Virus record (IMG/VR): IMGVR_UViG_3300001335_000606
Reading direction: 5' to 3' (one strand)
Origin: an uncultured virus (IMG/VR IMGVR_UViG_3300001335_000606)
Taxonomy: Duplodnaviria > Heunggongvirae > Uroviricota > Caudoviricetes
Length of the DNA: 64,000 nucleotides
In this document: in pieces, positions 1-64,000 of the stretch
Position numbering within the stretch: position 1 is the first letter of the stretch
How the letters are laid out: every line of letters begins with the position of its first letter
Made by a program: the position numbers and the translations under genes
The notes under the pieces: generated by a model
Database searches by the model: none
What the model saw: only the letters and a program-made list of their open reading frames with translations
What the model was told of the DNA's origin: nothing

Positions 1-213
1 CATAAAGTTTCTGATAATTTTGCCAACAATACCTTTGAACAAACAAAAATGGCCTGTAAGGTATATGATTATTATAGGAAAATGTATCCTAATAATAGAA
101 AACTGGCTTTAAATGGATATAATGGATATGCTTCGTTAAGCAATCCTTATGCTACAAAGGTACTAAAACATTATAATTATTATACTAATTTAATAATAGA
201 CGAGGACTAGTAA
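1..213 (+). CDS. Partial (3' end) probable lytic transglycosylase-like protein
   Basis: Frame 1 open from the window edge; LALNGYNG...PYATKV resembles the C-terminal SLT motif; ends TAG TAA. Confidence 0.45.
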
Positions 214-214
214 T

Positions 215-502
215 ATGGTTTGGATGATTTTATTTTTTATAACACTGGCATTATTAATAATTTTAGTAATATTCGGCATAGTGCAATTGCAGGCACGAAT
301 AAAGAATTAGGACATGGTTTTTAAAGTATTTCAAAAGATGAACAAAGCGTTGAATATAATGCGAGAAATTGATAGAACAGGAGCATTTTAGGCCCACGAC
401 TAGGTGGGTGAAACCTTTATGCTTTTGACAGGAACACTAGAATAGTTAAGGAATTACATACTGGAACAATTAAAATATGGATAGAAAGAAAGGAAATAGT
501 AA
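215..502 (+). CDS. Small membrane-anchored phage protein
   Basis: N-terminal hydrophobic helix; EIDRTGAF*AHD*VG motif; ends TAG TAA. Confidence 0.7.
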
Positions 503-1220
503 TAATGTATATTTTGGAGAAAAGTTATAGAAAATAATTGAGAAATATAATAAGTCATAGAATGCTGAAATAAGATAGAAACTCTTTGCACAACATATTG
601 AGAGTGCATTTAGAAGGATAGCTACATCCTTAGTTAATAAATATCAACTTCCTAGTAGATTACAAAATTATCACACAATTGTTTAGTCCACCATATCAAC
701 CATGGTATAGAAAATGCCAGGCTTTGATAGTTCAAAGGGAAAAGCATTTACTTATTTTACAATTGTATCTAGAAATTACATTCTTTCACAATTGGATAAG
801 GGCATAAAACATAATTAGAGATTTAGAAGTATTAACAGAACTAATGATGAAGGTGTTTAGATTAATTTATTGGAAAATTGCTCATTGAGTAATTGGCATT
901 AGCAACAGCAAAAATAGTATATTTCTTAGTTGATGTAGCAAACTATTAACAGATTAGCAGAAGTAATCCAAAAGTAGTATATACCATCGTTAAAAAAAGA
1001 ATCTTAGAAAAAAATAGCATATGCAGTTTTGCAATTAATAAATGATATAGATTTGATAAGTAACTTTAATAGGAAGGCAATAATTATTTATATAACAGAA
1101 ATGACAGGTGGAAAATTAGCTACAATTATGAGAATATTAAAAAATATCGGAAAGTATTATTATGAAATTAAAGAAGATGTTATTGAAAACGATTTGTAGC
1201 TTTCATTATACGAATATTAA
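477..1220 (+). CDS. Late-transcription sigma factor (T4 gp55-like)
   Basis: NVYF start, FDSSKGKAFTYFTIVSRNY, FNRKAIIIYITEMT; about 14 in-frame TAG. Confidence 0.7.
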
Positions 1221-1234
1221 GGAATTAAATTATT

Positions 1235-1630
1235 ATGTAGAATTTTAAAAATGTGGAACTTTTCAATGATTATTCTTTGTAGGACTTATTTCGTTAGGTT
1301 GTTGGCAATTCAAGAGACAATAGAAGGATGTTAATGGAAACTATAGATGAGGCAGTTAAAAGTATTAATGACACAACTGATTTGCAAATAATGTCTCCAG
1401 AAATTGATAAAAATTTATAGCTTATGGTTAAAAATGATGAATTGTTGATTAAATTAGCAAACGCTATTACAAAATTAGTTAAATAGCATAAAGGATTGGT
1501 AGATTAGGATATTTAGCTAACAGAATAGTAGAAGCAACAATTAATGAAAGAAGTTGATTAGAATATTAAGCCATTATTAAGGAATATAAATTAGAATCCA
1601 ATAAAATATGAAAAAGCAAATACGAACTAA
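1235..1630 (+). CDS. Conserved hypothetical phage protein
   Basis: SD aagga, then ATG TAG; L*LMVKNDELLIKLA and LTE**KQQL; ends TAA. Confidence 0.75.
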
Positions 1631-2741
1631 TCATAATCAACCTATATTTAAGGGTCATTCTTTAACTTCTGACACTACTATTGTTGATACTATAAAGGGG
1701 TTTTTAAACAATCAATAGTTTTACGAAATAGAACTTGCAGAAGTGCGCCAAGTATTAACTTAGTAGGATGTAGATTAGTAGACATATCCTGAACATTAGC
1801 CTGGAGCCATAAAAGCAAGATTGCTTTTTTCTGAAATGCAAAAATAGGTATAGCAGTTAGTAATAATGATACCTAAGAGTCCATTTCAAAATTATATTCC
1901 AGTGGTTGGTTAGATTGTTTTTTGTTCTAAATATCCTTCCCAAGATGTTGATGTTTAGCAGGGATTAATATTGGATCAATACTATTATTTTGATATTTTA
2001 AATATATTAAACCAACAAAACAATAATGCCATTGGTGATGTTTCTTTTATAAATTCCGATTAGCGCCCGACAGACGAAAATTAGGAGAAGTGTGGAGAAA
2101 ATTTTATTATAGATCCATCAGTGAAGAAGGTCGCATATCAAGAAGGTGATATTATTATATCAGGCAGATTTGGACATTCTATGAAATTTAGTCATAATAA
2201 AAGTTCCGACGGGAAAAAACTTCTGCCATCAATAATTATAAGCAATGAACAAAATCAGTTATATGATGAAAATTCAACATAGAATTCAACATTGTGCGGT
2301 TCTTATATTGAAATTTCACAGCATGATAAAGATCCTAATGAAATGCCTGAATTAGCTTCAAACAGATCACTTTTAAATACAGAAAACGACTTTTCTTTAA
2401 TAGGCAATAATTTTTTAGGATTTAGCGATAGAATAATACTTAATGCTAAAACTAACGATGTATAGATATATGCTAAGGAGAATATTGAATTATCCTCATA
2501 GAAAAATATTTTTCAATAGAGTAAGAAAATTACAATATAGGGTGCTTAGTAGGTTCATATAATAGTTGGAAGTAATTAGATTACAATAAAGTCCACAGGT
2601 GTAGAAATCAAAGCTTCCACAATAACATTGGATGGTGTTACATAGATAAAAGGAATACAAGATGGAGTAACTCCGGGTTTTTGCAGTATGCCTACGTGTG
2701 CTTTTACAGGTGCTCCGCATACTACTAAGGTTGTAGGATAA
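1608..2741 (+). CDS. Baseplate hub/central spike protein (gp5/gpV-like)
   Basis: EGDIIISGRFGHS, SDRIILNAK, C-terminal GFCSMPTCAFTGAPH; lies upstream of the gp25 and gp6 homologues. Confidence 0.65.
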
Positions 2742-4088: not shown

Positions 4089-5841
4089 ACAACCATCTAA
4101 ATAGATTAGATATTTAAACCGAGACTTTGATACAATTCTTCAGAGGTTGATAGATTATACCAAGTATTACTATCCTAATTCCTTTAATGACTTTTCTCCA
4201 GCTTCTCCTGCAATGATTATTCTAGAACTTATATCATATGTAGGCGACGTGTTAAATTTTTATATAGATAAACAAACTAAATAGTCTATTTTATATTATG
4301 CGACGCAAAAATAGTCCATTTATAATATTGCTCAATCGTTGGGATATGATATAAAAACTGCGGTTCCTGCTTCCGTCCCGTTAACCTTTTAGTATGTTAT
4401 ACCCACTAGTTCCACAACTCCTGGATAGGTTGATTATGATTACGCGCCCATATTATATCCTGGAACAGTAGTACAAGCTTCTTCAATTCCTAATTCTCAT
4501 TTTACGGTATTGAATACTATTAATTTTCACGAACCTGATGAAATTCTAGCGACTGAAAGAGAAAATTAGAGTTTTAAAATTTTAAGAAAGAAGGAATATG
4601 GATATTCTGTAGAAGAAAAGCAATATACAATATAGCTAGGCGATACGGTAAGAGATAATCTAAAAATAACTCTTCCTGATAAAGGTGTTGTCAAAATACT
4701 TTCTGTTAAGACAATTAGCGGAGACGATATTATTAACGATTGGTATGAAGTTTCTAATCTAGCTAATGATACAGTAATAAGTCATGATATTTCATATAAT
4801 AATAACACGAGAGTATTCAATAGAATTAAAACAAATAAAAGGTTTAAAAAGCTTGTTGATACAAATGATTATACCTATCTTTATTTTGGTGCTAAATAGC
4901 GTTCCGATAAGTTGGAAGAAGAATTATACAAAGCATTTTATGAATATGATTATGATGAAATAGCAACACCTGCTTTATTACTCTTGAATAATAATTATGG
5001 AGAAGTTCCAACAAATGTGACAATGGTCATTACATACTTATTAGCAACAAATATTAAAATAAATGCAAATGTCATTGATACAATAACTCATAAACAAGCG
5101 TTTAACAATAGCGATTATAATGCTGAAATTTATAATATACTATTGGAAGGTATGATCGCATATAATGATTCTCCTTCAATAGGTGGGCAATCAGCTGAAA
5201 GTTTATAGAATATAAGAACTAATGCTTTGGCAATTGCAAATACACAAAATAGATTAGTGACGCAATAGGATTATTTTAACGCTGTTAAGATTATGCCTAC
5301 GGAATATGGTAGTGTTGCGAAGACATATGCAAGAAGAAATAATGCTAATAATAACATTGAACTTTGGGTGCTATCTTATGATGTTGACAAAAAACTATCT
5401 TAGACAAATTATCAAATAAAGCAGAATTTAGGTTAGTTTTTGGAAAGATATAGAATGCTAGGCGATAGAATTGTAATCAATAATGCTTATATAATAAATG
5501 TTAAATGCGAATTTAAAATAGCAGTCGATGCTCAATATGCAAAGAGAGAAGTTTTATATAATGCTATTACTAAAGTTAAATAGATTATGGATATTGATAA
5601 TTTCGAAATAGGGTCACCAATAGACCAAAACTATATTAAGAACCAACTATTATCTATTGAGGGTGTTAACAATGTGGTATCTATACAATTTTACAATTTA
5701 AAGGGAGGAAATTATTCCTCCGTTTAGTATGACATGTCAAATGCTTTTGATATAGATGATGGGAAATATTATACTAGTTTTACGCCTTCGATTTTTGAAC
5801 TAAAGTACCCTGAAACAGACATAGTGGGGAGTACAATATAA
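4081..5841 (+). CDS. Baseplate wedge subunit, gp6-like (baseplate J)
   Basis: YLNRDF...YYPNSFNDFS...SYVGDVLNFYID; QNRLVTQ*DY; PSIFELKYPETDI. Confidence 0.85.
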
Positions 5842-15248: not shown

Positions 15249-16187
15249 TTGAATGAACGATTAAATTTGTTGCTTATGGATTTGCTCGGAGAACCTGAGA
15301 ATCCTGATTCAGAATGGGTGTATTACAAATGTCCCTTTTGCTAGAAACAAGGGAAACATAAAATAAAATTAGCTATAAATGCTAATACTTTAGTTTGGAA
15401 ATGCTGGGTTTGCAAGGAACATGGTTCAAACTTATTTTCTTTAATAAGAAAATTAGGAAAATGGTCTTTAAAGGATAGAGTAAAGTCCGCAGTTTAGAAC
15501 ATTATTCCTCAAAAATTTTCCAAACCTAAAGGAAAATTATCCCTTCCTAAAGAATTCCTCCCTCTAAATTAGGATAGGGATTTTATTATGAAAAAACGAG
15601 TTCTTAGATATTTAAAAAAGCGAGGTATTGGACAGTATTAGATAAATAAATATGATATAGGATTTTGCCAAACAGGGCAATACAAAAATCGCATCGTAAT
15701 ACCATCCTTTGATTAGAAGGGTGTATTAAATTATTTCACAGGAAGAAGTATTGTTAAAGAATAGGAATTGAAGTATTTAAATCCGAATTGTGCTCGTTCC
15801 TAGATAATAATTTTTGAAAATCTTATAACTTGGAAATTTCCAGTAGTTTTAACAGAAGGAATCTTTGATGCCATGTCTGTTAATTTTAATGCTATCCCAT
15901 TAATGGGAAAGGTTGTTCCAAATGCTTTGGTTGAAAAACTTTTGTATTATGATGCGGAAGTTATAATAACTTTAGATAGTGATGCCAGAGATGACCAGTA
16001 TGATATATTGCGGCAATTATATAAGCAGGGTTTGTCAAATATATATTATTTAAACTTGCCTGAGAAGGATCCAAGCGAAATGGGAAGATAGTATTATTGG
16101 GAATATTTATTTAACAATTACAAAAAGTTTAGTTAGAGCAACAATTTAGATATATTAAAATAGAAATTGGGAAAGTTGTAGAAATGA
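15249..16187 (+). CDS. DNA primase (Zn finger + TOPRIM)
   Basis: CPFC...CWVC; RIVIPSFD; LTEGIFDA; LDSDA; KDPSEMG; SD ggagg before TTG (in-frame ATG at 15237 is an alternative start). Confidence 0.9.
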
Positions 16188-19100
16188 TTAAAAAGATTTT
16201 TCATATTTCAGATATTCATATTCGTTTATACAGAAGAGCTAAATAGTATCTGCATGTATTGTAGAATTTATTAACTACTATTGAAGAACGAATGGATTAG
16301 CATTCTATAGCTGTAGTTACAGGTGATATATTCCATTCTAAAAATGAATTATCTCCAGAAGCTATAGCTATTGCAAGTGGTTTTTTTCAAAGATTATTGG
16401 AACTTCTACCTGTAATTTTGATAGCCGGAAATCATGATACAAATCTAGCAAATTCTAACAGATTAGACTCTTTATCTCCTATAGTTTAGTTAATTGAAGA
16501 TTAGAATTTATTTTATTTGAAAAATACCGGGTGGTATGAACATTCAAATTTAAATATTTGGGTCTCTTCAGTTTTTGATTAGAGATTGCCCAAAACATTT
16601 CCAAAAAACGATAGTATCAACATATTGTTATATCATGGTTGTGTTGGAAATGTAGTAGTTAATGGAATACCATTGCCTTCAACCTATAAAATTTAGGAAT
16701 TTAAAGGGTTTGATTTTGTTCTTCTAGGAGATATACATAAGCAACAAATTTTAAGTAAAAATCCTTTAACTGCTTATGCAGGATCTTTAATGCAATTGAA
16801 TTTTGGATAGTAGGTTGATAAGCATGGTATATTAGTTTGGGATTTGTAGAAAAAACAAATTGAAAGTGTTGAAATACCAAATGATTATTCTTATTACAAT
16901 ATTATTGTTAAAGATGGTTAGATAGAGGAAATGCCAGAAATAAAGGCTAAACATCCTCGTATAAAAATAAAGTATACAAATACTACAATGTTACGTCTGA
17001 AAGAAATTAAAAAAGAATTATATGAAAAATATCATGTTGAATAGTTAATGCTAATTAGACAATCCGAAGATTTAGTAGTTAGAACAAGCACCTTTAAATA
17101 TCAACTTTAGAATCTTTAGAATCCAAAGTATCAATAGCAGGTTATTAAATAGTATATTGAACATATGAATCTTCCTATCTAGAAGTAGGAATTAAAAAAA
17201 GTTTTGATATTAAATTAGGAAATAAATTCAGTAGTAAATTCTAGTCAGAAAAAGAAGTTTCATCAAAATCTCTGGACAGTATAGAAATTAGAATTTGATA
17301 ATTTCTTCAGTTATGGATAGGGCAATGTTGTTGAATTCAACACCCATAAAGGGATTGTGGCAATTCTAGGGGAGAACAGAGCGGGAAAATCCTCTATCAT
17401 TGATACATTAATGTTTCTTTTGTATGATAAAACTTCAAGATGCTATAAATCTATATCAGTTTTAAATAATAAAAAGGATAAATTATGGGGAAAAGTTACT
17501 TTAATGATAAATGGAAAGCCTCATGCAATATAGAGATGGGGCAAATTGAAGCATTCGGCTTCTGGTGATTCGCTTCCTATAAAGTGCAAATTTTATGCTA
17601 TATAGGAAGATGGTACTTAGGTAGATTTGTCTGGTACTGATCGTTTTTCAACTAATGCAATAATACAGCAGTACGTAGGTGTATACGATGATGCTGTAGC
17701 TACATTCTTTTCTACACAAGGTAATGCGAATGCTTTTATATAGTTAACAAATTCAGGAAGAAAATCCCAGTTGAATTCTTTATTGAATTTGTCTATTTTT
17801 GATGATTGTTATTCTTAGGCTAACGAAAGATCCAAATATTTAAAGGGTTACTTGAATAATGTTGAGATTGAAAAAATTGAAAACGACCTTAAAATTAATA
17901 ATTAGAACATAATTGTCTTAAGTGAAAGTATTAAGAACTTAGAAGATAGTATTAAAAAGGTTTGCAAAGAAATAGATAAAAAAGAAAAAATACTTAAAGA
18001 ATTGAATAGTGAAAAGCGTAAATAGAACCAAGAAATTATAGATATTGAATAGATTAAAACAAACATAAAGAAGCAAAAAGAGCAAAAGGCAAGTTTGACT
18101 GCTGGCAAACTTAGCGTAGAAAAAAAGAAGAATGCTCTTGAAGAAAATTTAAAATAGCTTGAAGTTTTAATATAGAAAGTCAAAATTGGAAAGAAAAAAT
18201 AGCATTACGAAAGCTTGTAGAGTGATTATTTACAGTATCAGGGTTATTTAAAGCAATTATAGATGCTAAATTCTGATATTGCTGAAAAATAGAAAAAGTT
18301 GGAATTATTAAAGGAAGTTGAATATGATGAAAATTGCCCATATTGCATGAATAATCCTTTAACTAAAGATGCTATTTCTACACAAAAGAAAATGTCAAAA
18401 TGGTTATAGAAGAGAAAAGAATTGAAAGAAGATATTGCAAAAATAAAACCTGCCTTTGATAAAAGAAATTAGTTAGAAGGGGAAATAAGGTTATTTGAAT
18501 CAGAAGTGTTGCCTCTGCACAATTCTTTAATGAAGGAAGATTCATAGCTTTCGGATGATTGGTTGGATTATGAGGAAAAAATCAGGATTATTGATAATAA
18601 ACTTTCAATTTTAGAACAAAAACAAAAAGCTTATTATGACAATCAAATAATTATATAGTAGAATACAAAATTACATAAGCAAATAATGGAAATTGAACAA
18701 TTGTTGCATCCTTTAATAGAGGAAAGAAAGGAATTAGAAAATTAGCTTCTTAAAAACAGAATTAATATTTCTAACACTTAGCAATCCATTGAAAATGGGA
18801 ATATAGCTATTAGACAGTATAACGAAAAAAATTAGCAATTATAGGTGCTTTAGAAGTATAAATTAATAGTTGGAAGAACAGGTTTGCAGTACTATATAAC
18901 TTCGAATATTATTGTGGTTTTATAGAATGAAATGAATGCAGTACTTGAAATGATTGCTAATTTTTCGGTTTAGTTTGTTATTTAGGGGAAATAGGTTCAT
19001 ATCAATATTGTTTATTCTGATAAGACCTATCCTGTTGAAACTTGTTCGGGGTTTGAAAAGTTTATAATTTCCATCGCATTAAGACACACTTTGTCTTCTA

Positions 19101-19330
19101 TTACGAACAAATCTAAAGCTAAAATGTTCGTAATAGATGAAGGATTTGGAGTTTTAGATAATGAAAATGTTAATGCTTTTTAGAAGATATTTAATTTTAT
19201 TGCATAGAAATATTAGACCTTAGTAGTTATATCACACTTATAGGCCATGAAGCCGATGTTTTAGGATGCAATTCAAGTGCAATACAATGATGGAGTAAGT
19301 ATGATATATGAATCTAGTAGTAACCAATGA
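16184..19330 (+). CDS. Fused SbcD/Mre11 nuclease - SbcC/Rad50 ATPase (gp47-gp46-like)
   Basis: HISDIH, TGDIFH, AGNHD, LGDIH; Walker A GENRAGKS; zinc hook CPYC; CSGFE; IDEGFG; ISH, all in one frame. Confidence 0.88.
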
Positions 19331-39567: not shown

Positions 39568-39571
39568 TTTG

Positions 39572-41242
39572 ATGAATTCTAATTCCGTTAAAATCAATCC
39601 TAGGAATACTAAATTTTCTTAGACAAAAAAGGCAATGATGGCATAGTATAAAAGATGCTATCAATCACCTGTCTATTTTCTACGCAAATATGCTGTAATA
39701 CAACACCCTACCCGAGGTTCTATACCATTTGACCTTTATCCCTTTCAATAGGAAACATTAGAAGATTTCGTTAAACATCCTTGGAATATAATATTAAAAT
39801 CAAGACAATTAGGAATTTCAACTTTGGTTGCTGGATATGTTTTATGGTTATGCAATTTCCAAAGAGATAAATCAGTATTGATTATTGCAAATGTTCAAGA
39901 TGTTGCTATGAACATTATTAGAAAGATTAGGCACATGTATGGTTCTTTGCCTAGTTGGCTTAGAGAATAGCTTGTAACAGATAATAAGCAATCTTTATTT
40001 TGGAACAATGATTCTTGGGTAAAAGCTGCGTCTGCTAGTCCCAATGCTGGGGTTTCAGAAGCTTTATCTTTGCTAGTTTTTGATGAAGCAGCCGTATTAA
40101 ATTAGACATTAGCTTCTCAAATTTGGACATCTGCTCAACCCACACTATCTACTGGTGGAGATTGTATTATGTTATCAACCCCAAGAGGTATTGGATCTAC
40201 CTTCCATAGATTGTGGACAGAAGCTTAGTAGTGTAATAATAGATTTCACACTATAAAATTAAAATGGGATGTTCATCCTTAGAGAGATCAGGCTTGGAGA
40301 GAATAGCAAACTAAAACTTTGGGATAGAAATAGAGTGCAAGGTAGTGTGATTGCGACTTTGCTTCTTCAGGAGATAATGTTATTCCAGGTCATGTTTTGT
40401 CACAGTTGGAATCTTAGACAATCATGTAGCCTATTGAAAAAATGCATAATGAACAACTTTGGTTATTTAAATATCCTGAAGCTAATAAAGAATATATAAT
40501 TTCCGCTGATGTCGCAAGAGGTGATGGAAGTGATTTTAGTGCTTTTCAAATTATTTCAATTGATGACAATTAGCAGGTTGGGGAATTCAAAGGAAAGATA
40601 CCGACAAAAGATTATGGTCAGCTTATCGTTAGAATAGCTAAAATGTTTAATGAAGCATTTGTTGTTGTGTAGAATGCCTCAATTGGCTGGGCAGTACTGC
40701 AATAGATTATAAATCAAGAGTATAAGAATTTGTATTATCATAAAAAAGACTACAAATACATAGATATATAGTTACATTCAAAACAAAGAATGAATAAGAG
40801 ACAATAGTCTCAAAAAGATATCGTAGGATTTACTACTTCTAGCAGAACTCGACCTTTAATAATAGATAAAATGGTTGTTTCTTTGTAGTCTAAGTAGTTC
40901 ATTGTTCATTCTAAAAGATTGTTAAACTAGCTTTGGACATTTATTTGGTTAAATGGGAAACCAGAAGCTATGAAAAGTTACAATGATGACCTTGTTATGT
41001 CTTTAGCAATAGGATTATGGGTTCGTTATACATCATATATAGTAAAGCGTGAAGCACGTGCTTTTACCAAATTGAAATTGAATGTTATAGAAAGTGGTCT
41101 TCATAAAAAGCATCAAAGCTAGGAAAGAATCTCGACGGGTTTCTTCAATAATGCAAGTAATTATAATAGAAGTCGTAATATATTTCAAATTGGGTAGCAG
41201 GAAGTAGATTTGCACAAGTTTTATTTTCCAAAGAATAAATAA
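39572..41242 (+). CDS. terL: Terminase large subunit (T4 gp17-like)
   Basis: LKSRQLGIST, LLVFDEAA, LSTPRG, ADVARGDGSDFS, NDDLVMS. Confidence 0.95.
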
Positions 41243-42074: not shown

Positions 42075-43658
42075 ATGGATATATATAAAGCATTAAAAAG
42101 GGTTTTTGGAACAGGATTAATTGTTAACGACGTGAAAGGCGATAAAATTAAAGTTATTGATACACAGAGGTCTCAAGCCTATGCAAGAGCCAACACCTTT
42201 ATATCAAAATTACGTAAAAATTCATTATATCAAACAACTTTACAACAAAATTATTCAATTAACAGGCTAGCATTATATAGAGATTATGATATGATGGATG
42301 CCGATCCATATATCTCCTCTGCTTTAGATATATATGTCTTTGAATCATTAACTAAAGATGAATATGGGCAAACCTTAAAAATTACATGCCAAGATGAGGA
42401 TATCACTGAATTATTAGAAGAATTATTTTATGAGAGATTAAATTGTGAATTTAATTTCCCTATATGGTTCAGAAACTTTACAAAATATGGAGATTTCTTC
42501 TTAGCTTTAAAACTTCATGATACGTTAGGTATTATTGGTGGAGAGCCACTTTCTTCTTATGACTTATAGAGAGTTGAAGACGACCCCGATAGACCTGGTG
42601 CTTATTATTTTAAATTCTATGCTGGGGGTAATGAAATAATTTAGAATTATAACATTGCTCACTTTAGATTATTAAATGATTCCAACTTTTTGCCATATGG
42701 AAGATCTACATTATAGCCAGCACGTAGAATTTGGAAAAATTTAACTCTTATGATTGATGCTATGATGATTCAAAGAATTATGAGAGCACCTTAGAGAAGA
42801 GTTTTTAAAATTGATACTGGGGATTTGTCTAAGGAATAGGTCTAGCCTTATATGAGAGATGTAATAAACAAGATGCAAAAAGTTCCATATAAAGACCCTA
42901 ATACTGGTTAGATAAATCTCAAATATAATATCCAAAATTTACTTGAAGATTTCTTTATTCCTGTTAGAGGAAAAGAAGATGGTTCTAGTGTTGAAACTCT
43001 TGCTGGCATGTAGAATAGTTTTACGGATGACATACAATTCTTATTTAAATATTTAAGAACGGCACTAAAAATACCTAATGCATTCTTAAATGACGAGCAA
43101 GGAATCGAAGCAAAGGCAACTCTTGCTGGTCTTGACATAATATTTGCTAGATATGTTGAAACCTTACAGAATATATTTATAAGTTAGCTTTATAGAGTTG
43201 CTTTAATACATTTGTTTATGAATGGTTATACAGATTTGGGCGATATAGATTTTAAACTGGAATTAAATAACCCTTCTAATGTTAAGAAAATACAATAGAT
43301 TTAGCTTTGGAATCAGCTCGTAGATTTGGGTATCAAAATGTAGGAAAGTTCCCATTTTTCCTTGAACTTTATTTATGATGAAATTTATAATATTCCAGGC
43401 GACAGAGCCACCTTAATGCTAAAACAAATTAAGAGTGATAGAAAATATAAAGCTCAACTTTAGGCTTTGCAACAAGAAGTAATGGGTGGCGGTGAAGAAT
43501 AGTATGCTTAGGAAGAGGAAGAAGCTCCCGAAGAATACCAAGAAACTACATAGTCTGAGCCTGCTTAGTAGTAGGCATAGTCGGTTGAACCAGAAGAATA
43601 TTAGGAGTAGCCATTAACAAACAATTTTAGAGGCAATTCACCACTAAATTTGGATTAA
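42075..43658 (+). CDS. Portal protein (T4 gp20-like)
   Basis: YRDYDMMDADPYISSALD; FLPYGRSTL*PARR; MRAP*RRVFKID; EDFFIPVRG. Confidence 0.95.
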
Positions 43659-46217: not shown

Positions 46218-46853
46218 ATGGATAGAAAGCGAATATTGCTAGTAGAAACATTTCCACTTAGCATGCCATCTCAAAAGATTTTGAAATAGTCAATTAAAGA
46301 AAATAATGGTAAGCTTTATTTGACTGGCCGTTTGCAACATGCTAATTTATTGAATGGGAATGAAAGATATTATCCAAAAGATATTTTAGAAAAAGCAATA
46401 AATTAGTATATGCCTAAAATTAAAAATAATCAAGCATTTGGATAGTGTAATCATCCAGATAGTGATCAAATAGATTTAGAAAGAGTTTCGCATATAATTA
46501 AAGAATTATCTTGGAATGGCGATGAGGTTATTGGGACAATAATGCTTACGTCAAACCAAATTGGAAAAGATATGCAAGCCTTGGTAATATAGGACGGTGC
46601 TTCTCTTTCAATATCTAGTCGCGGACTGGGATCCCTTAAAAGAACTACAAAGGGTGATGAAGTTCAAGATGATTATTAGATAATAGGATGGGATTTAGTT
46701 GCTTAGCCATCAACACCCAATGCGACTTTCCATAATACGAATTAGAGTATTGATTAGAAAGTTAAAAAATTGGTATAGAAGAAAACCTTAACAGAAACTA
46801 AGAAGGAAAAGATTTCTTTCTTAGTAAATTAGATTAAAACACTTTTAAAGTGA
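46218..46853 (+). CDS. Prohead protease (T4 gp21-like)
   Basis: NGNERYYP; AFG*CNHP; VSHII; ISSRGLGSL; WDLVA*PSTPNA. Confidence 0.95.
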
Positions 46854-49763: not shown

Positions 49764-50738
49764 ATGGAAGTTAAAAACTTACTAAAGTAGTCAATCCTTG
49801 AAGTTGAAACTTTAAAGGAAACTGCAACACGTAATACCAAAGACCAATTGCTAAAGGAAATGTCAAAGGGTCTTAAAAAACAACTTAAATAGCAATATGA
49901 ATAGGATAAATTCATTCCTGAAGAAGATTAGGATGATGAAATTCTTCCTGAGCAAGATTAGGATGATGAAATTCTTCCTGAAGAAGATTAGGAAGACGAA
50001 TTAATTCCTGAACAAGATTAGGATGATGAAATTATTCCTGAAGAAGATTAGGATGATGAAATTATTCCCGAGGAAGATTAGGAATAGGAACCTATCATTG
50101 AGGATGATTAGTTAGACGACATAATTGAAGAATTGGAAGATTAGACTGACTAGGATATGCCGTATAGCGAAAAGGCTATGTAGGAAGATCTGTAGGATGA
50201 TGAAAAAGTTCCATCTTTGGAAGAAGAGGAAGATGAATAGGAATTGATCTAGAAAATTAGAGAAATTCTTGAATCTTAGGAAGAATAGGAATAGAAAATT
50301 ATTCCTGAAGAAGATTAGGACTAGGAAAAATAGGAAGTGATTGAGCGATTAAAGAAAGAAAATAAAAAACTAAGAAAAGAAAATCGTCTTTACAATTCTA
50401 ATTTAAGGAAACTAAACTCCCAAGTTAATGAAATTAAATGTCTTCAAATGAAGAGTAGATATGCAATAAAGTTATTTGAAAGATTTAATTTGAGCCAATC
50501 TCAAAAAACTAAAGTTATTGAAAATTTCGATAGAGCAAATAACGAAAGAGAAATTAAACTTGTGTACGCTACTTTGGCTGAAGGACTTAAGAGTGTTTCT
50601 AAAACTCCTAAAAAGAAAAAGATGGGATACGCATCTAACCGTATTAAGACAACTAAAAGAAATATAAAAGAAAGTACACTTGATGATAGCGATAAGGCTG
50701 TGTCTGCAATATTCAGACGCAGAACCATTTTGGACTAA
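49764..50738 (+). CDS. Prohead scaffold/core protein (gp22-like)
   Basis: NLLK*SI start, acidic middle, QKTKVIENFDRA..REIKLVYATL; directly upstream of the capsid gene. Confidence 0.85.
49914..50093 (+). repeat. About six tandem 30-bp units in the scaffold gene ([I/L]PE[E/Q]D*DDEI)
   Basis: ttcctgaagaagattaggatgatgaaatt repeated with substitutions. Confidence 0.9.
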
Positions 50739-50764: not shown

Positions 50765-52441
50765 ATGAGATTTACTGAAGCTATAAAAAAGGTAATAGAC
50801 GATAATCCTAGTTATGGTACTCGTTTATAGCAAGCTGAAAAGATTGCTAGAAAGTGGGAAAAATTAGGATTAATGGAAGGGTTGAATTCCCCCAGAGATT
50901 CTCTGTTGAGAACCAATGTTGCCATAATGCTCTAGAACCAAGCTAAACAAATTTTAAGAGAAGCAAACTATACTTCCACTACTCAATATCACGAAGAGTG
51001 GGTTGGTATTGCAATGCCTCTCGTACGCAGATTTATGCACAAACTAGCTGGCAAGGACTTTGTGACTGTACAAGCAATGTCCCAACCGACTGGTTTGGTA
51101 TTCTTCATTGACCATCAATTTGGAACCACAAGAAAGGGATTCGATAAAGGTGAATCACTCTACGGCACTACATTTAGCGGTACCAGAGGGGAATTCGACT
51201 ATGTGATGGATACTAATCTTGAAAAAGGTCTTTATGATGCTGGCAGATGGGGATATTCACTTAATGAAGCAACTACCGTAAGCACGGTAACGGCATAGTC
51301 CACTTCTACGATTATTACTGCTAAATACTATCAAAATGATAGCAGATTTAGCCAATCATATGCTGATGAGATTGCCGATGGTGACATAAAACTTCTTTCC
51401 GTAGCAATTCCTACGGATGCAGATAAGAATGGATATGATGCCTTCTATCTATACAATAGTGAAACCGATACCAGTTCTGCAACTTATATTTAGAAAACAT
51501 TCAGACAATACACGAGAATTAATGGCGACAATTTGGAATTTGTAGTATTGACAGGGGGCAGCGATCCCTGGACTGGTAGTGCAACTCTATCATATCACAA
51601 ACAACCAACAACTTATAACCGTGGTGACTTTGAATATCAAGGTGACGACTTGCAAACTTAGGACATCGGTATTCCTGAAGTTCAATTCAAATTGACCCAA
51701 AAACCGATTGTACCTGAAACCCGCAAGATGAAAGCTACCTGGACGCAAGAGTTAATTGACGACTTGAACGCCCTATTGGCTATCGACGGTGAACAAGAAA
51801 TTTCCAACCAACTTACTGACCAAATCACTCTTGAAACTGACTTAGAATTGATTGCTATGATTGGTAAAGGTGCTGTTCAGTCTGGAAACGAAAGCTACTT
51901 CTCAGTTAAACCTGGATATTAGCTATCATCCGTGACAGATGGCGTGGCAACATTTGCAGAAAATAGTAACTACGCAATCCAAGACAGACCAAGTTGGTTC
52001 AGGAACATTTCTGTTCCAATGCAAAAGGTTTCTAACCAAATTCACCAAAAGACGGGTAAAGGTGGCGCAAACTTCGCTATCGTTTCCCCTACCCTTGCTA
52101 CTGTTCTTGAAACTATTGAAGGATTCTCAATGGATACAGATGGTACTCAAGACTGGATGGATGGTGGATTTACTAAGATTGGTACTTATAAAGCAAGATA
52201 TAAAATCTATAAAAACCCATATAGTGTTAGTGATAACATGATGATTTTGGGATATCGTGGAACTGGATTCCTCGACTTCGGCGCTGCATATTGCCCATAT
52301 ATTCCTCTTATCATGCTTCCTAATATAATGGAACCGACCAACTTAACACCTACGAAAGGTGTCTATACCAGATACGCAAAAACAATGCTTCGTAATGATT
52401 ATTACGGTGTTGTTTATGTTCACGGTCTATAGACAGTTTGA
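50765..52441 (+). CDS. Major capsid protein (T4 gp23-like, 558 aa)
   Basis: AIML*NQA; MPLVRR; VQAMSQPTGLVF; TRKMKATWTQE; AAYCPYIPL; TRYAK; 7 in-frame TAG. Confidence 0.97.
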
Positions 52442-54694: not shown

Positions 54695-54702
54695 TTTAAA
54701 GA

Positions 54703-55212
54703 ATGCAAAGGGGATTATTCTTTCAATAGCGAGATTTAACTCTATTAAAAAGTTTAAGTGAATAGCTTGTCGAAGAATGGATGAAAGTTGAATTCCAATA
54801 TTTTAAGTTGAATACAAAGAATATAAAAGTTAACATATATGGATAGGCTAGAAGAGGTGCAAGATAGTATTATAAAGGTATTACAATGCCTGGTCTAATA
54901 GATCATAATCCGCAAGCCTTGGATTTTTCATAGTCTCTTAAATATCGTAACTCTGCAAGATTTCGATTATTAGTATAGACACTTAAAAAATATAATTTGT
55001 ATCCTGAAGTGGGCGACATCGTTTATTGGAATAAAATATTTTGGTAGATAGCAAATGTTACGCAATAGCAATTAATAGCTAATGATCATGAAACAGAGTG
55101 GTCAAAGATCTTATAGACCGTGACTCTATCAGACTCAAAGGTTAAACAGCTTTTGAAGTTTTCAAATGAAGAATATAACAGATATACCGAAGAGAGTACA
55201 ATGAATGGTTGA
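54703..55212 (+). CDS. Neck/head-closure protein (gp14-like)
   Basis: NIYG*A; LYPEVGDIVYW. Confidence 0.7.
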
Positions 55213-55903: not shown

Positions 55904-55939
55904 TTATAGATGTAATATTATTTATAGAAGGAGTATACT

Positions 55940-56218
55940 ATGAAGATTCAAGACGAATATATAAACAAAATTATGGAAGTTTCTAACAAAATTGAAGGTT
56001 CTATCAAAAGACTAGGAGTTATACTTTTTAACGAAAATATGTTAGAGAAAGAAAAAGATAATCTTTTAATTTCAATTGAAAATTTGAACAAAGAAAAATA
56101 GAATCTAATTCAGCAAATTTCTCAATAGTACGGCGAAGGTTATATAGAACCTGGTACTTGGGAATTTCATCCAAAAGAGACGGAAAATGCTGAATAGGAG
56201 ATTGTTAAGGAGAATTAA
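55940..56218 (+). CDS. Small conserved coiled-coil protein
   Basis: YGEGYIEPGTWEF; SD aaggag. Confidence 0.7.
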
Positions 56219-56224
56219 CGATAA

Positions 56225-58432
56225 ATGAGAGAATACGTAAGTCCAGGAATTTATACATAGGAATATGACAAATCCTTTCTTCCTACTGCTCCTCCAGCAG
56301 GATCCGCTGCAATATTTGTAGGTGGATTTACAAAAGGTCAAGCATTTGTTCCTATGCGTATTAAAGACACATACGATTTATTGGATAGGACAGGGGAACC
56401 AAATGGTCTCTTCTATTCCCAATACGCTGCATATGAATATTCTAAGCACAAAGGCGACTTTTACGTCCAAAGAATTCTATGGGATTAGCAATGGACTTCT
56501 GAAGCCTATTTAGTAACAGCTTAGGGTGATGATGGAATTTAGTTGCTTGCAGTATTATTTCCAACTGGAGACAGTGTTGATTTAAGTACTTCAACTTCTG
56601 CTGAAAAAAGTGGTGACAGCTGGTCAGATTTGACCTTTGGTGTTACTGATGGAACAACCACGACCAGTTATACATGGTCTTTTGCAGATGTTGTAAATAT
56701 TGATGGAGTGGTTGGAACTAATCCTGTTCAATCCACACCTTTGTATTTATTTGGAAAAACTGCAAATTACGATGCTACAGATAATACTGGAAGCTTTACA
56801 ACCATTTCAATAGTAAAATAGAGTGACTTCTTTACATCACAAAATGGGTATAAGAATGCTAGAACCCCATCCGTATTCAATCAATACAATGTGGAATTAT
56901 TCCATTTTGAGACATTAGGAGACGGAACTTACACTAATAAAGAAATCAAGATAGCTATTGAAGGATTGCAAACTGCTTCTTCACTTGAATATGCTAAATT
57001 TGATGTAATTGTGAGAGCATATGATGATACTTAGAAGAAACCTCAAATTCTTGAAGCTTTCTATGAAGTAACTTTGGATCCAACCGATATTGCTTACATT
57101 GGAAAAAGAATCGGTGACATGTATCAAGAATGGGACAGAACTAATAACAAAACAATTCTTCATGGAGATTTCCCTAATAACTCAAAATACATCCGTGTCG
57201 TTGTAAGTGATTAGGTAAAAAATAAGAATGTAGCCCCATTAGGAAATGTATATGGAATCGAAGCTATTCCAGTAACAGGTTCTGATACTTATGAAATAAC
57301 ATGCCCAACACCTTATACTCATAGTTCGGAAGTGGAAACAAGATCACTTACTTTGTATCATGAACACCAAGGATACGATGTCAGCTTAGGTTAGGTTAAA
57401 TTCTTATCAAATCCTCTGCATAATAGTGCTACTACAACTTCATTAAGTATTTATACGGTAACTGGGGATTATATAATTCCTTTCTATGGTGGATTTGATG
57501 GAAGAAATCCTTCTGATGGATTTACAACAGATTAGAATACTTTATATGGATTTGACTTCACAAGCTAGACTTCTTCTGGCAGTGCAATATTTATAGAAGC
57601 TTTGGGATTATTAAGAAATGTATAGTAGTACGATATTGATGTTGTGTCCATAGCTGGTGTAAACCTTGAAAGTGAAGGCAAAAAGTCTGTATTTGAATAT
57701 GCATTATAGGAAGTTTGCGAATTTAGAGGAGATTGTATAGTTGTAGCTGAAGCCTGTGAATTAGGTACAATGACAACCGGAACAATAACCACATATACTG
57801 AAGATTTTGATTCTTCTTATGGTGCGGTTTATTATCCTGGAGTAAAGATAAAATGCGATTATACAAAAACTTATCCAGATTTGCCTGGTTCTGCTTTAAT
57901 TCCTTCTGTAATAGCATATACAGAAAAGGTTTCGCAACCTCACTATGCTCCAGCTGGAATTAATCGTGGTACATTAAATGTATTGCAAGCATTAACAAAA
58001 CTAACCAGAGATTAGAGAGATTCTCTTTATAAGTATAATATCAATCCGATAGCTTCTTTTGCAGCAAATGGAACTGTAGTTTGGGGTCAAAAAACTCTCC
58101 AAAAAGCAGCATCTGCGTTAGATAGATTGAATGTAAGAATACTTGTTAACAGAATTAAGAAGTGGATTGAAACTTACGGTAAAACTGTACTATTTGACAA
58201 TAATACCGTAACATTAAGACAGGTATTTACACTGGGTGTAGAATCTTATCTCAATAATATAGTTTCCGTAAACGGATTATATGCTTATAGGTTTGTGATG
58301 GATTAGACTAATAACACACCGGAAGTTATTGACAGAAATCAATTAGTCGGTGAAGTATGGCTTAAACCTACGAAAACTGCATAGTTTATCATCATTCCTA
58401 TTAACATTGTTAGAACTGATATGGAAATTTGA
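56225..58432 (+). CDS. Tail sheath protein (gp18-like)
   Basis: YVSPGIY; APAGINRG; VWGQKTLQ..SALDRLNVR; KPTKTA*FI. Confidence 0.96.
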
Positions 58433-58461
58433 GTAAAAAAATCAATAGGAGATAATAAATA

Positions 58462-58947
58462 ATGGCTGATTATCAAAATGAAATGCTAGGGGTACAATAC
58501 TAGGCAAAACTAAAGTATCTCTTTATAATCACAATAGAAGGTATTCCAACTTATCTTTGCACAAAAGCGTCAAGACCATCCTGGTCTGCTGGGGAAGTTC
58601 AATATAACTTCTTAAACTTAAAGCGTTGGAGCGCAGGAAAAGTTACTTGGGATACAATTTCCGTTACTGTTGTTGATGCATTCACTCCTTCAGGTGCTCA
58701 AGCTGTCATGGCATGGTTAAGAGCTAAACATGAACCTTTGAGTGGAAGAGACGGATATGCAAACAACTATATGAAAGACTGTACAATTCATCTACTGGGG
58801 CCAAGTGGCGATGTTCAAGAATCCTGGAAGCTAATAAATTGTTGGGTTCAATCTGCAAACTTCGGTGACCTTGATATGAGTGATGAAAATACTCCAATGG
58901 AAATTGAATTGACTTTGAGATATGACAAGGCAATATTGTAGTATTAA
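58462..58947 (+). CDS. Tail tube protein (gp19-like)
   Basis: AGKVTW; PSGAQAVMAW; SGRDGYA; ANFGDLD; LTLRYDKA. Confidence 0.92.
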
Positions 58948-58969
58948 TTAAAATAACATATAAAGATAA

Positions 58970-59004
58970 AAAAAAGAAGGACATGTAATATGTCCTTCTT
59001 TTTT
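58970..59004. terminator. Bidirectional terminator between the convergent gene blocks
   Basis: Perfect inverted repeat aaaaaagaaggacat-gtaat-atgtccttctttttt. Confidence 0.9.
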
Positions 59005-59044
59005 ATTGTACCATTAAATATAACAAAAAATATGCTAAAATTAC

Positions 59045-59242
59045 TTACTTCTGAGTGAGGATCTATAGCATGAGTTTTTTTATTTTTTCTCTCTCGTACT
59101 TTTGAGCAACTTTGAAAATTCTAGTTGCACCTTTTGTCGGGTTGAAAATTATTTCATCCTCTGTTAATCCAATTTTTTCCAAATCATGCTAATTTGCCTT
59201 CTTAACAAATGATCTTATTAGCTTTGCATTTTTCCCACTCAT
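59045..59242 (-). CDS. Small hypothetical protein
   Basis: MSGKNAKLIR; two in-frame TAG; ends TAA. Confidence 0.6.
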
Positions 59243-59745
59243 AAATTAATCTTCCTTTTAAATTCTTCAATTAAACTATAATTCTCGTATTTCTTTCTCA
59301 ACTTATGCAATTTTGCAGTGTATAAACAGCTTTCAGGAACAAAGGATTTTTTAAATAACTTCTAAACTTCAACTTTATAAACATATACTCCATATTTTTG
59401 ATATACCCACTTTCTATTAACTGAGAACTAAGAATGGTTATTATATATACTAAATCCTCCCTTTACATCTATAAAAACCTAATTCTAGGTAAAGGGGAAA
59501 AGTTGTTTTACTATCGGATTCTAAGAAAACTACACTTTGAAGTCTGGAGTGTATATATGTTTTTGTAAAGCGGACTTATTATTTATTAAAACCTTTTCAC
59601 TTAAAAGAAATGGCTAGGGTTGATATTCAAAATGCAAAACCAATCCTAGTTCTGTACAATCTTCAAGCCATTTATACATCTAAACTTCTTCATTACTATC
59701 AAAACTTATTTCGTCATATAGAAATTTGTTTTTCTTTGAAGTCAT
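59239..59745 (-). CDS. PD-(D/E)XK endonuclease, DUF1064-like
   Basis: FDSNEE; FEYQP*PF; YTPDF; IDVKG. Confidence 0.75.
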
Positions 59746-61221: not shown

Positions 61222-62148
61222 TCAAGCGATATTTTTTTCTAATTCTTTTGCCAAGAAATCATTTAAAATGTTTTGCTTGTTAACGGAACTACCAATATCT
61301 TTAAGCATCATATGATTACTAATAAAATTAGTAGCAGTAGAATATAGAGACCAAAGTGAATCTTTTTTAACTTGTTCCCTATTATTCAACATATATTTTT
61401 CTACAATTTCATCGTAATGCTTTATAAACATGGAAGGAAATCCCATTTTGCTTAAATCTTCTAACATTTCATTTTTGAATGGTATGCCTTGCATTTTTTC
61501 AATATTCAAAGCCAATTCATCAAAATTTTCCAACACCTTAGAATACATTTCCGAAAAATTCCATTTTTCAAGAATTGAGGGTGTGTGAATTACTTTCTTA
61601 ATACCGTAATCAACTCCAATTACCATTCCATTTTCACATTTAAATCTATATGCACCAAATAAAATACCTGCTGGTAGACCACCATCTGTTGAATTGAAAA
61701 CATCAATTGTGGGGGATATTCTACTTCCGTCTACATCTACCTTCACTTCATCAAAGACCAAGTTTGCATAGATGCGGTTTTTACCTTGTCTTTGATCCAC
61801 ATAAAGCTTTGGAATGGAAAATTTAAGACCAGCATTGTCAAGCACATTCATAACATCACCAATTACTGCTTCGTGTTGTGCTAACTGGTATCTATCACTC
61901 ACGATATTAACAATCAATTCTTCATTTTTAAATGGCACAATATTTCCGTTCTTTTCAATCTTGCCACCTGCGCGTTTTATTGAAAAAAATCGTTTGTAGG
62001 CACGATTCTCTGTATCCTCAACCATATTTTCAATAGTTGTACGTGTTGCAGAAAAAATTTCCTGCAATTGTTCCCTATCAACAAACTCCAAAACAGTTGA
62101 CTTGTTTTTGGTTGCTGATTTAACTGCTTTTAATTCTCTCATGTTCAT
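61222..62148 (-). CDS. DUF932-like protein
   Basis: IVSDRYQLAQH; FNSTDGG; YRFKCENGMV; SLWSLYSTAT; no TAG. Confidence 0.8.
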   Translation of the reverse strand: MNMRELKAVKSATKNKSTVLEFVDREQLQEIFSATRTTIENMVEDTENRAYKRFFSIKRAGGKIEKNGNIVPFKNEELIVNIVSDRYQLAQHEAVIGDVMNVLDNAGLKFSIPKLYVDQRQGKNRIYANLVFDEVKVDVDGSRISPTIDVFNSTDGGLPAGILFGAYRFKCENGMVIGVDYGIKKVIHTPSILEKWNFSEMYSKVLENFDELALNIEKMQGIPFKNEMLEDLSKMGFPSMFIKHYDEIVEKYMLNNREQVKKDSLWSLYSTATNFISNHMMLKDIGSSVNKQNILNDFLAKELEKNIA

Positions 62149-62160
62149 AATAACTCCATA

Positions 62161-62871
62161 TTATTCGTATTTAAATATTCGTTTTACCATTGGATCATAT
62201 TGCAAATTTTCCATATAAGATAAATAAGTATTTATGGATTCCATTAAAGTTTCCCTATCAATTGATAAATGGTTTCTCAAACCTCTCCATTCTATCGTAT
62301 TAAAGTCCGAATGTATATGATACAAATCAGACTTAGAATTATTGACTTCGGGTACCACATATCTCTTTCCATTATTGTAATCCCTAAGACAACTATTCAC
62401 TCTATAATAATATTTTGCACGGCAACCCTTATATGAAGCGTATCCTTCATGCTCCATCCAAAAATCTTTAATTTTTAGTAATTTCTTGTCAACACCTAAA
62501 CGCAAATATTCATAAAGTAAAGCATAATGCTGTATTCTAGAATAATCACTTCTTGAGGCATGAACATGCAAACTTGTGCTGTCATTATCATGAGCAAATT
62601 TTGAAATGGTACCGAGTACCATTTCCACTTTTTTCATATTTTCCTTTGTATATAAGAACTTCTTTGTCTTAATTTCGAACGCAAGTGCAAATATATCCTC
62701 GCATTCTACGACTAACGAAGCATCAATATTATAAAATTTGCTATGGTCAGGACGATTATCTTCCATACTTTGAAGCAAAATTCCAGAATGCTTTAATTCT
62801 AATTCTTTATGAAGAGCTACAGCATTTTCAAATGGAATTATGAATTCAATTTCAATACCAAAGTATAACAC
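62161..62871 (-). CDS. Putative amidoligase (COOH-NH2 ligase fold)
   Basis: FGIEIEF; DASL; EIKT; STSLHVH; TIEWR; SD gaggagg, GTG start; no TAG. Confidence 0.75.
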   Translation of the reverse strand: MLYFGIEIEFIIPFENAVALHKELELKHSGILLQSMEDNRPDHSKFYNIDASLVVECEDIFALAFEIKTKKFLYTKENMKKVEMVLGTISKFAHDNDSTSLHVHASRSDYSRIQHYALLYEYLRLGVDKKLLKIKDFWMEHEGYASYKGCRAKYYYRVNSCLRDYNNGKRYVVPEVNNSKSDLYHIHSDFNTIEWRGLRNHLSIDRETLMESINTYLSYMENLQYDPMVKRIFKYE

Positions 62872-62884
62872 CGTAACCTCCTCT

Positions 62885-62935
62885 TCTTTTAATACACTAT
62901 TATTATAACCAAATTATATAAAATATTATCCACAA
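62885..62935 (-). promoter_or_regulatory. Candidate host-type promoter
   Basis: TATAAT boxes on the - strand upstream of the amidoligase SD; no convincing -35; AT-rich background. Confidence 0.35.
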
Positions 62936-63999
62936 ATATTTTTAGCCAAGCTTCTCCCCGTCCCATTGGCAACCACAATAGACCGAGACCTTCCTGAACA
63001 ATCCCCGATAAATTTTATTTTATCAGAATTGTTAATTTTGGAACCATAAAATTTTGTCTAAATACCATAAAGCAAATTGTCTTCAATGGAAACCTACGGG
63101 ACAACAATTGCTAATTTCGTAATGAACTCTTTTATCGCCTAATAAGTTTTAGCAGGGAGAACATAGGAAAGGTCTCCCAAAATATATTGTTCCTTTGGCA
63201 AGGTCGGTAATACTCTAAATAAATGTTTGGTTCTTTTCTGTTTGAGAAAGTCCCCTAGCGTTTGCAAAATTAATTTTTCTCTGGAACCTGCTAACAAGTT
63301 CGCTTGTTGTGCAATAGATTTGCCATATAATACTGGATTATTAAAGGGTTCAGTAAATTTTTGCGTAACAAGAATTGCAAAATTGGTATTCTTAGATTTA
63401 ACATTCGTTTTTGAATGTCCATTAACTATACAAACCTTCTCTCCCAAAACATCAACAAGCTATGTTACAACAAACCCTTTAGGATTATGACAAAATGTTC
63501 TTACTTCCAAATTATTGGAAGTTTTATATTTCACCTTCCATTCATGAAATTTCTAATCCAAGCTTTTAATGTTAGGCAAATTAGAAGGAATCTATATTCT
63601 TACTCCAATATCAACCTTAAAGCTTCCACCTAATAATTCTGGGTATTTCTTAGTAACATAGTCAACTAATGTCGTGCCATATCTGCCTACAGCTAGAATA
63701 ACCATATCATATTTCTCTTCAATTTCATCAAATTTTTCTGGAGTAATTTGAGTATCAAAACAAAACTAAACTAAATCACCTAATTCACTCTATATTCTTC
63801 GTAAAATCGCTTCATTTGTCATTTTTAATTGATCTGTTCCCAAATGGAAGGTTTTTCCACCTTCGGCACTAACTAAACACATTCCGTTATTATAAAATTT
63901 TTGGGCAAGCTCAGATAATATTTCCGTACTAAATTCTTCTGCTTCAATTTCTTTTGCATAATCCCGTCTTATCAAAGAATACGCTTTAGGATCAGGTTC
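62926..63999 (-). CDS. Partial FAD-dependent oxidoreductase (COG2509-like); 5' end lies outside the window
   Basis: FHLGTDQL; LAVGR.G; VDIGVRI*; VRTFCHNPKGFV; NTNFAILV; LYGI*TKFY; IGDCSG. Confidence 0.85.
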
Positions 64000-64000
64000 A

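Follow-up and report, generated by a model that had tools for sequence, protein, structure and literature searches.

The stretch of DNA considered here (64,000 nucleotides, hereafter the window; IMG/VR record IMGVR_UViG_3300001335_000606) comes from an uncultured virus of the Caudoviricetes, has a G+C content of about 30%, and carries the gene set of a T4-like myovirus in which almost every gene is crossed by in-frame TAG codons, whose meaning is the subject of this analysis. With TAG masked as X, Pfam searches recovered capsid, portal, protease, terminase, sheath, tube, gp25, primase and Mre11/Rad50 proteins, including matches to Gp23 (1.7e-59), Portal_T4 (2.2e-52), Peptidase_S77 (1.3e-26) and Phage_T4_gp19 (30.8 bits against a cut-off of 28.2); the matches to Terminase_6N, to both sheath domains and to GPW_gp25 were weaker and lay below the Pfam gathering score. 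Searches of the PDB matched T4 gp20, gp23 and gp17. The window thus holds the core virion and packaging genes that characterize a T4-like myovirus.

Open reading frames (ORFs) of at least 60 amino acids were called by allowing only TAA and TGA to stop a frame, so that ORFs terminated by TAG were impossible by construction. The resulting 81 ORFs overlap slightly and cover 61,659 of the 64,000 bases (96%), and 78 of them, on both strands, contain in-frame TAG, amounting to 716 codons or 35 per 1000. ORFs of at least 150 amino acids increase from 4 under translation table 11 to 44 when TAG is taken as sense. TAA ends 55 of the ORFs and TGA the other 26, in a calling where TAG could not act as an end, and TAA never occurs in frame within the called ORFs. 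One kind of stop codon therefore fills essential genes whose frames are regained by reading through it, as is typical of stop-recoded phages. Downstream of a TAG close to the C-terminus of the capsid protein, conserved residues continue; the sequence would also be compatible with a rare terminating TAG. These observations agree with the initial annotation of the window, which had described TAG in nearly every gene on both strands, gene ends at TAA or TGA (a count that here excludes TAG by the way ORFs were called), and a gene beginning with ATG TAG at 1235, which is present. The positions that it had singled out (50933, 46443, 42714, 42792, 40280, 40343, 40670, 58304, 58382, 3894 and 28198, together with 63592-4 on the minus strand) are all in-frame TAG codons.

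Counted as glutamate (Glu), TAG accounts for 716 of the 1811 Glu codons (39.5%), while GAG accounts for 129 (7%), so that TAG ranks second among the Glu codons, and the Glu content of the proteins is 8.85% with TAG and 5.35% without it. The codon is evenly distributed along genes, with 25 occurrences within the first ten codons and 21 TAG-TAG pairs, and the base that follows it (position +4) shows no meaningful bias (p = 0.18 against AAG; p = 0.04, a small shift, against GAA). Its share of Glu codons is 21% in the capsid gene, 32% in the sheath gene and 55% in the terminase gene. By these measures TAG appears to be an ordinary, well-decoded sense codon that is not confined to late genes.

To assign a residue to TAG, all window proteins were aligned by tblastn, with TAG as a score-neutral X, to standard-code relatives that share the same T4-like gene set and order and in which 22-23 window genes could be aligned. 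The closest cultured kin are Microcystis phage Mel-JY01 (PP395634) and Flavobacterium phage immuto (NC_055915), with a terminase identity of about 43%, and the uncultured 484-kb phage LR756508 is also near; terminase identity across the three is 41-44%. The DNA compared comprised almost the whole of the two cultured genomes and 120 kb of LR756508. Opposite the TAG codons, Mel-JY01 (n = 280) has E 73, D 34, N 25, K 23 and Q 11; immuto (n = 193) has E 51, S 18, D 17, A 15 and Q 11; and LR756508 (n = 240) has E 77 and D 32, followed by S 16, N 15, K 13 and Q 9. Glu therefore makes up 26%, 26% and 32% of the aligned residues, respectively, glutamine (Gln) makes up 4-6%, and no stop codon stands opposite a TAG column in any of the three. 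As a control, random GAA or CAA codons were masked as X and the search was repeated. Masked GAA gave 27-31% E with D second, indistinguishable from the TAG columns, whereas masked CAA gave 18-22% Q and 9-14% E. When the TAG columns were scored against the masked-codon profiles, the log-likelihood was highest for Glu (−717.8), followed by Asp (−777.4), Gln (−793.9) and Lys (−800.6), with six other residues lower, which leaves a gap of 76 between Glu and Gln. The homologues thus do not show the alignment of TAG with Gln that is expected under code 15. At the ten motif sites cited in the initial annotation that could be aligned to standard-code genomes, Glu occupies 25 of 28 cells, and Q, N and S occur once each; the S74 site (28198) was not alignable and is outside this tally.

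Comparison with two closer relatives from other assemblies, L005 and L006 (74% and 57% capsid identity to the window, respectively), is informative in a different way, since both are TAG-recoded themselves and codons can be compared directly. Window TAGs aligned to L005 (n = 129) face TAG 59 times, GAA/GAG 21 times and CAA/CAG 5 times, and in the reverse direction L005 TAGs (n = 202) face GAA/GAG 77 times, TAG 59 times and CAA 6 times. L006 shows a similar pattern of swaps. L005 has TAG opposite 36% of the window's GAA columns, as compared with 6% of its CAA columns (Fisher p = 4e-11 for L005 and 0.006 for L006). Exchange of TAG with GAA/GAG is 7-13 times as frequent as exchange with CAA/CAG in these relatives. 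Because TAG to GAA and TAG to CAA both need two base changes, mutation cannot account for the preference, and TAG and GAR appear to act as synonyms. The same kind of exchange occurs within the window, where, as the initial annotation had noticed, a pair of paralogues carries TAG at 52563 and GAA at 53299. Three paralogue positions that the initial annotation listed as pairing TAG with CAA would be expected from ordinary substitution between Glu and Gln, since in the orthologue comparisons TAG stands opposite CAA/CAG in 4% of cases and GAA does so equally often (4-6%).

Individual genes show where these codons lie. The large terminase gene (39569..41242, plus strand) has 24 TAG codons, whose columns were examined in 103 distant homologues and in an alignment with T4 gp17. 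Codons 220, 259 and 454 fall on columns that are Glu in 103/103 homologues, codon 61 on one that is Glu in 100/103, and codon 368 (40670-40672, in the motif VVV[TAG]N) on one with E in 94 and D in 9; a second column has Glu in 94/103 and another in 91/103. Over all 24 columns, E reaches 43.9% and Q 6.0%. In the solved T4 gp17, the residue opposite the TAG of VVV[TAG]N is the Glu of VYIELNS, which we take to be the catalytic E458, given that the same index offset puts the aligned Asp at D401. Several TAG columns in this alignment fall on Glu in T4 gp17, and none falls on Gln.

The gene for the major capsid protein of the gp23 family (50765..52441, plus strand) contains 7 TAG codons, of which codon 57 (50933, L[TAG]NQAK) corresponds to Glu in 93/93 distant homologues, and two others correspond to columns with Glu in 75/93 and 69/93. 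In the gene for the FAD (flavin adenine dinucleotide)-dependent protein (62926..63975, minus strand; 8 TAG codons), three of the TAG codons stand opposite Glu in 66/66, 66/67 and 68/68 homologues, the first being that of GVRI[TAG]. The prohead protease gene of family S77 (46218..46853, plus strand; 10 TAG codons) has G[TAG]CNHP where 3/3 standard-code relatives have GELDHP, and in the tail sheath gene (56225..58432, plus strand; 16 TAG codons) MD[TAG]TNN is opposite Glu in 2/3 relatives and TA[TAG]FI in 3/3. The portal gene of the gp20 family (42075..43658, plus strand) has 22 TAG codons, many of them in the part encoding an acidic C-terminal tail, and its RAP[TAG]RR stands opposite RAPEK in three standard-code relatives and RAPDRR in T4. 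An acidic scaffold-like protein (49764..50738, plus strand) is encoded with 23 TAG codons that occupy a fixed spot in repeated acidic units (..EED[TAG]DDEI..), in keeping with the earlier remark that TAG fills its runs of D and E; Glu-type codons (TAG, GAA and GAG together) make up 24% of this gene. Because the fused Mre11/Rad50-type nuclease-ATPase (16184..19330, plus strand), an ORF of 1048 amino acids, contains as many as 54 TAG codons, TAG is not limited to virion genes. Taken together, the alignments with masked controls, the codon swaps, the conserved columns and the comparison with T4 gp17 bear out the proposal of the initial annotation that TAG is a sense codon standing for Glu, and Gln, which it had said would refute the idea by dominating the aligned columns, stays at 4-6% in the three standard-code relatives.

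The bases themselves appear to be genuine. Two studies contributed four public runs in which the stretch was found, all of them described as metagenomes of freshwater or aquatic origin. Over positions 39500-59400, the contigs of these runs depart from the window by no more than 7 single-base differences, and no TAG codon is touched by them. This speaks against GAG underlying the TAG sites of that part. L005 and L006 share the TAG habit, and Mre11/Rad50 homologues on further contigs of the same two bins contain 91 and 20 in-frame TAGs. A discrepancy of another kind concerns the amidase gene (48228-49070), in which the contigs of all four runs have an additional 22 bases following position 48804 and, at 48809, an A where the window has G, a change that would turn TGG into TGA; the 280-amino-acid amidase ORF of the window may be a fusion that arose from a small deletion or from assembly collapse at a short hairpin-like repeat.

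The use of TAG for Glu probably extends beyond these three genomes. All 27 capsid clusters nearest the window (47-74% identity; from ENA, NCBI and Logan) show an apparent Q at columns where Glu is conserved, in 159 of 567 cells, as compared with 23 of 1953 in distant homologues. The public proteins of L005 and L006 have Q at 10/10 TAG codons each, and because Q stands at all 20 of the TAG codons checked, we conclude that public pipelines applied code 15 to this clade and mistranslated it. The check at the DNA level covers 2 of the 27 capsid clusters (our cluster sets are P0001-P0027 and P0121-P0137). The capsid signature in 27/27 clusters, together with the two relatives seen as DNA, suggests that the surrounding clade shares the assignment of TAG to Glu. 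Other searches were negative within their scope: a capsid search of a viral-contig collection gave no close locus, a 40-mer from the start of the window had no exact match in that collection, megablast of 5 kb of the window against GenBank phages gave no match, and a capsid profile run against 258 genomes of the family of G001, one of the bins considered below, matched in G001 alone. A metagenome scan with the FAD-dependent protein at the right edge of the window returned homologues of 32-42% identity, with no contig extension and no CUA tRNA at the loci, and a crude measure of ORF gain was uninformative at their G+C content. By the same crude measure, two of these loci, L154 and L156 (about 47% G+C), increased in long-ORF cover from 1.21 to 2.15 and from 1.27 to 2.30 when TAG was read as sense, and may be unrelated TAG-recoded elements.

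Several further features of these genes were observed. A DUF932 protein and an adjacent gene of 236 amino acids (61222..62871, minus strand) have no TAG among 45 Glu codons, for which the chance is 1.5e-10 at a share of 39.5%, while flanking genes on the same strand do use TAG; the pair may be a recent gain from a standard-code source, or may consist of genes needed before a decoder exists. The Mre11/Rad50-type protein joins an Mre11-type phosphoesterase and a Rad50-type ATPase in one ORF, its homologue in Mel-JY01 is similarly long, and its T4 counterparts are the separate gp47 and gp46. Within the close clade, some terminase homologues (P0128, P0130 and P0131; 676-758 amino acids) exceed the usual length, and P0128 carries PF14890. 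In LR756508.1 (145790-149458), the portal homologue matches as three pieces within one unbroken frame of 1387 amino acids, which suggests two in-frame inserts, perhaps inteins.

A number of observations weigh against reading TAG as Glu throughout and against its decoding by a tRNA of the phage. At codon 379 of the terminase, 86/103 homologues have Q, and at codon 294 of the FAD-dependent protein, 68/68 have Gly. The residue of Mel-JY01 opposite the TAG of the capsid motif L[TAG]NQAK is Q, and the T4 portal has K three times, D twice, A once and V once, and no E, at seven aligned TAG columns. ARAGORN and Rfam gave no tRNA or other Rfam match in the 64-kb window, a tRNA with a CUA anticodon was found neither in L005 nor in L006, nor among the tRNA genes read in the bins G001 and G002, and the link between the phage and G002, the candidate host bin, is one of co-binning. 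The disagreeing columns fit the scatter that real Glu codons show in the masked controls. With these points taken into account, we consider it very likely from the sequence evidence that this freshwater T4-like myovirus writes its genes in a code where TAG is glutamate and TAA and TGA are the only stops, that the code is clade-wide, and that TAG has become a fully assimilated Glu codon.

The search for a decoder went beyond the window. Among window ORFs of at least 150 amino acids, Pfam gave no match to a synthetase or a release factor. Rfam tRNA hits numbered 33 in G002, all of whose anticodons were read, and 63 in G001, where the fetched ones were read, including three dense tRNA arrays; first-look candidates in G001 numbered 299 and 459, of which 150 each were scored, so that the negative there is incomplete. 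A pattern combining anticodon loop and T-arm matched less often than its control and yielded no CUA tRNA, intron-tolerant ARAGORN on the relatives found no CUA tRNA, a pattern of Glu-type D-arm plus CUA gave chance-level matches, and a purpose-built covariance model of Glu-tRNA (R1) gave no new Glu-type gene. Two candidates were rejected. A weak match of 108 nucleotides on contig C167 of G001 contains only the 3′ half of a tRNA and has no 5′ partner; at 5289-5316 on the minus strand, this lone half (T-arm, 3′ strand of the acceptor, CCA) sits beside a tRNA-Trp, with no 5′ half within 400 bases upstream. A Glu-like tRNA on contig C156 of G001 (262-332, minus strand) was discarded as a decoder on account of a loop that by homology reads UUC, a defective stem and a weak link between contig and phage. 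Its body is clearly of the Glu type, but the anticodon arm is irregular, with three good pairs in the stem and, in the reading of ARAGORN ('tRNA-?(Glu|Arg)'), a loop that lacks one base. The tRNA array in which it lies is free of TAG, and the neighbouring RNA-ligase-like ORF shares 34% identity with the one that adjoins the tRNA gene of Mel-JY01.

The bin G002 holds related phage contigs and has a G+C content of 26-28%, like the phage. Its cellular ORFs terminate with TAG, it has an ordinary tRNA set and a release factor 1 (RF1) match of 459 bits, above the curated cut-off, and it contains a GatB fragment and no true glutaminyl-tRNA synthetase (GlnRS). These features fit a standard-code host that makes Gln-tRNA via glutamyl-tRNA synthetase (GluRS) and GatCAB. 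In the mechanism that we regard as reasonably probable from these genomes, a tRNA of glutamate identity and anticodon CUA, encoded by the phage outside the window, would be transcribed early in infection, the cellular GluRS would charge this suppressor in a host that itself has TAG as a stop and RF1, and the charged tRNA, having a glutamate-type body and not being a substrate of GatCAB, would escape transamidation. A GluRS of the non-discriminating type is already tolerant of variation at position 36 of the anticodon. Because nearly every gene, replication genes included, needs TAG, the phage would have to impose its code from the start of infection, and a mechanism that needs only transcription to start would explain TAG even in replication genes. 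A little less firmly, we lean toward the more comprehensive view that a clade-wide code unlisted for any virus or prokaryote, spanning at least 27 capsid clusters, is imposed, as soon as infection begins, on a host with the standard code and RF1, by way of a suppressor charged by GluRS.

Alternatively, the clade might use ordinary code 15, with TAG as glutamine and the Glu signal due to the interchangeability of E and Q. Glutamine is the sole meaning of TAG described for phages in the literature searched, public pipelines translate the relatives accordingly, and the terminase column with Q in 86/103 homologues would be explained. However, Q at TAG columns stays at 4-6% where masked CAA gives 18-22%, the log-likelihood is worse by 76, TAG swaps with GAA/GAG 7-13 times more than with CAA/CAG, and TAG sits on invariant-Glu columns that include the nuclease site of the terminase, all of which makes code 15 highly improbable. 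More improbable still is an artefact, be it an error of assembly or base calling, modified DNA read as T, or a decayed genome filled with pseudogenes, given that four runs from two studies give the same bases and that two relatives from other assemblies look alike. Moreover, TAG is exchanged mainly with GAA, which takes two base changes, in-frame GAG shows no selective depletion, and full-length ORFs account for 96% of the window.

The decoding of TAG could also be ambiguous, mostly as Glu and partly as Gln (e.g., through partial transamidation by GatCAB of a Glu-charged suppressor), or with partial termination by RF1. The candidate host bin has RF1, a GatB fragment and no true GlnRS, so that a GluRS/GatCAB route may exist, and a minor second reading is compatible with the sequence. 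Nevertheless, the placement of TAG at invariant, presumably catalytic Glu sites, the 21 tandems, the 25 occurrences in the first ten codons, the density of 35 per 1000 codons and a +4 position that lacks a protective context relative to AAG, with a small shift relative to GAA, argue for efficient and faithful decoding, and we therefore regard ambiguity as unlikely. A comparably small chance is given to the possibility that the host itself reads TAG as Glu, so that the phage matches an uncharacterized cellular code. TAG is indeed used in both replication and late genes, the DNA searched yielded no phage-borne decoder, and a KACI preprint of 2026 mentions, in its available portion, TAA/TAG-to-glutamate signals in archaeal assemblies, which are ascribed there to contamination. 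By contrast, the cellular contigs of G001 and G002 gain no ORF length when TAG is taken as sense and use TAG as a terminator, the RF1 of G002 is above the curated cut-off, and no CUA anticodon was present among the tRNA genes read, i.e., all 33 Rfam hits of G002 and the fetched, scored hits of G001.

These findings bear on how recoded phages are annotated and understood. Annotation software (prodigal-gv, Pharokka-gv, code 15) and the literature treat phage recoding as TAG to Gln or TGA to Trp/Gly. Database proteins of this clade consequently carry Q for E at about 3.5% of positions, including invariant, presumably catalytic Glu sites, and such errors corrupt homology searches, structure prediction and functional inference. 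A natural amber suppressor pair that accepts Glu would offer a new component to genetic-code engineering. In the portions of their preprint available to us, Borges et al. report only TAG-to-Gln and TGA-to-Trp in phages whose code is unlike that of the host, and argue that only GlnRS and tryptophanyl-tRNA synthetase (TrpRS) can be hijacked for a code change; if the present reading is correct, that argument as given there is incomplete, and a GluRS-based route must exist, which is of note because GluRS normally reads the anticodon. Other reports, in the text available, point toward Gln or leave the residue unassigned: occasional E opposite TAG was seen in the Lak paper, which concluded Gln, Al-Shayeb et al. 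kept the residue as X, and the phAss-1 paper, the jumbo-phage survey and Cook et al. assumed Gln. We found no report of TAG as Glu in a phage in the full-text literature searched, supplements not being covered, and within that literature the claim of novelty made in the initial annotation is upheld.

Compared with the phages of code 15 (crAss-like phages, Lak, phAss-1/Phassvirus, Garnet/Topaz and the other clades of Borges et al.), the window has much in common: essential genes are filled with TAG and end at TAA or TGA, the host is likely to use the standard code, and decoding would be expected via a phage suppressor tRNA(CUA). It differs in that TAG stands for Glu and not Gln, in that TAG occurs in 78 of 81 ORFs and in replication genes where the known phages show a bias toward late and lysis genes, and in that no suppressor tRNA or release factor 2 gene was seen in its 64 kb. 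It is, moreover, a freshwater, T4-like lineage, beyond the gut and rumen settings from which most descriptions come. The standard-code relatives Mel-JY01, immuto and LR756508, despite the shared gene set and order, differ from it in code. The closest parallels for the codon itself are eukaryotic. Peritrich ciliates read UAA and UAG as Glu (NCBI table 30), and Blastocrithidia also uses UAG for Glu. In an uncultured ciliate, according to the portion of PMC11687900 consulted, UAA is Lys and UAG is Glu. In these codes, as in the window, UAG is decoded as glutamate. However, they belong to nuclear genomes in which UAA is reassigned too, whereas the window is from a phage in which most genes end at TAA (55 of 81 ORFs). 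The peritrich combination of TAA and TAG as Glu does not apply. The window thus appears to represent a stop-recoded phage with a new codon meaning that is common to a sizeable freshwater clade.

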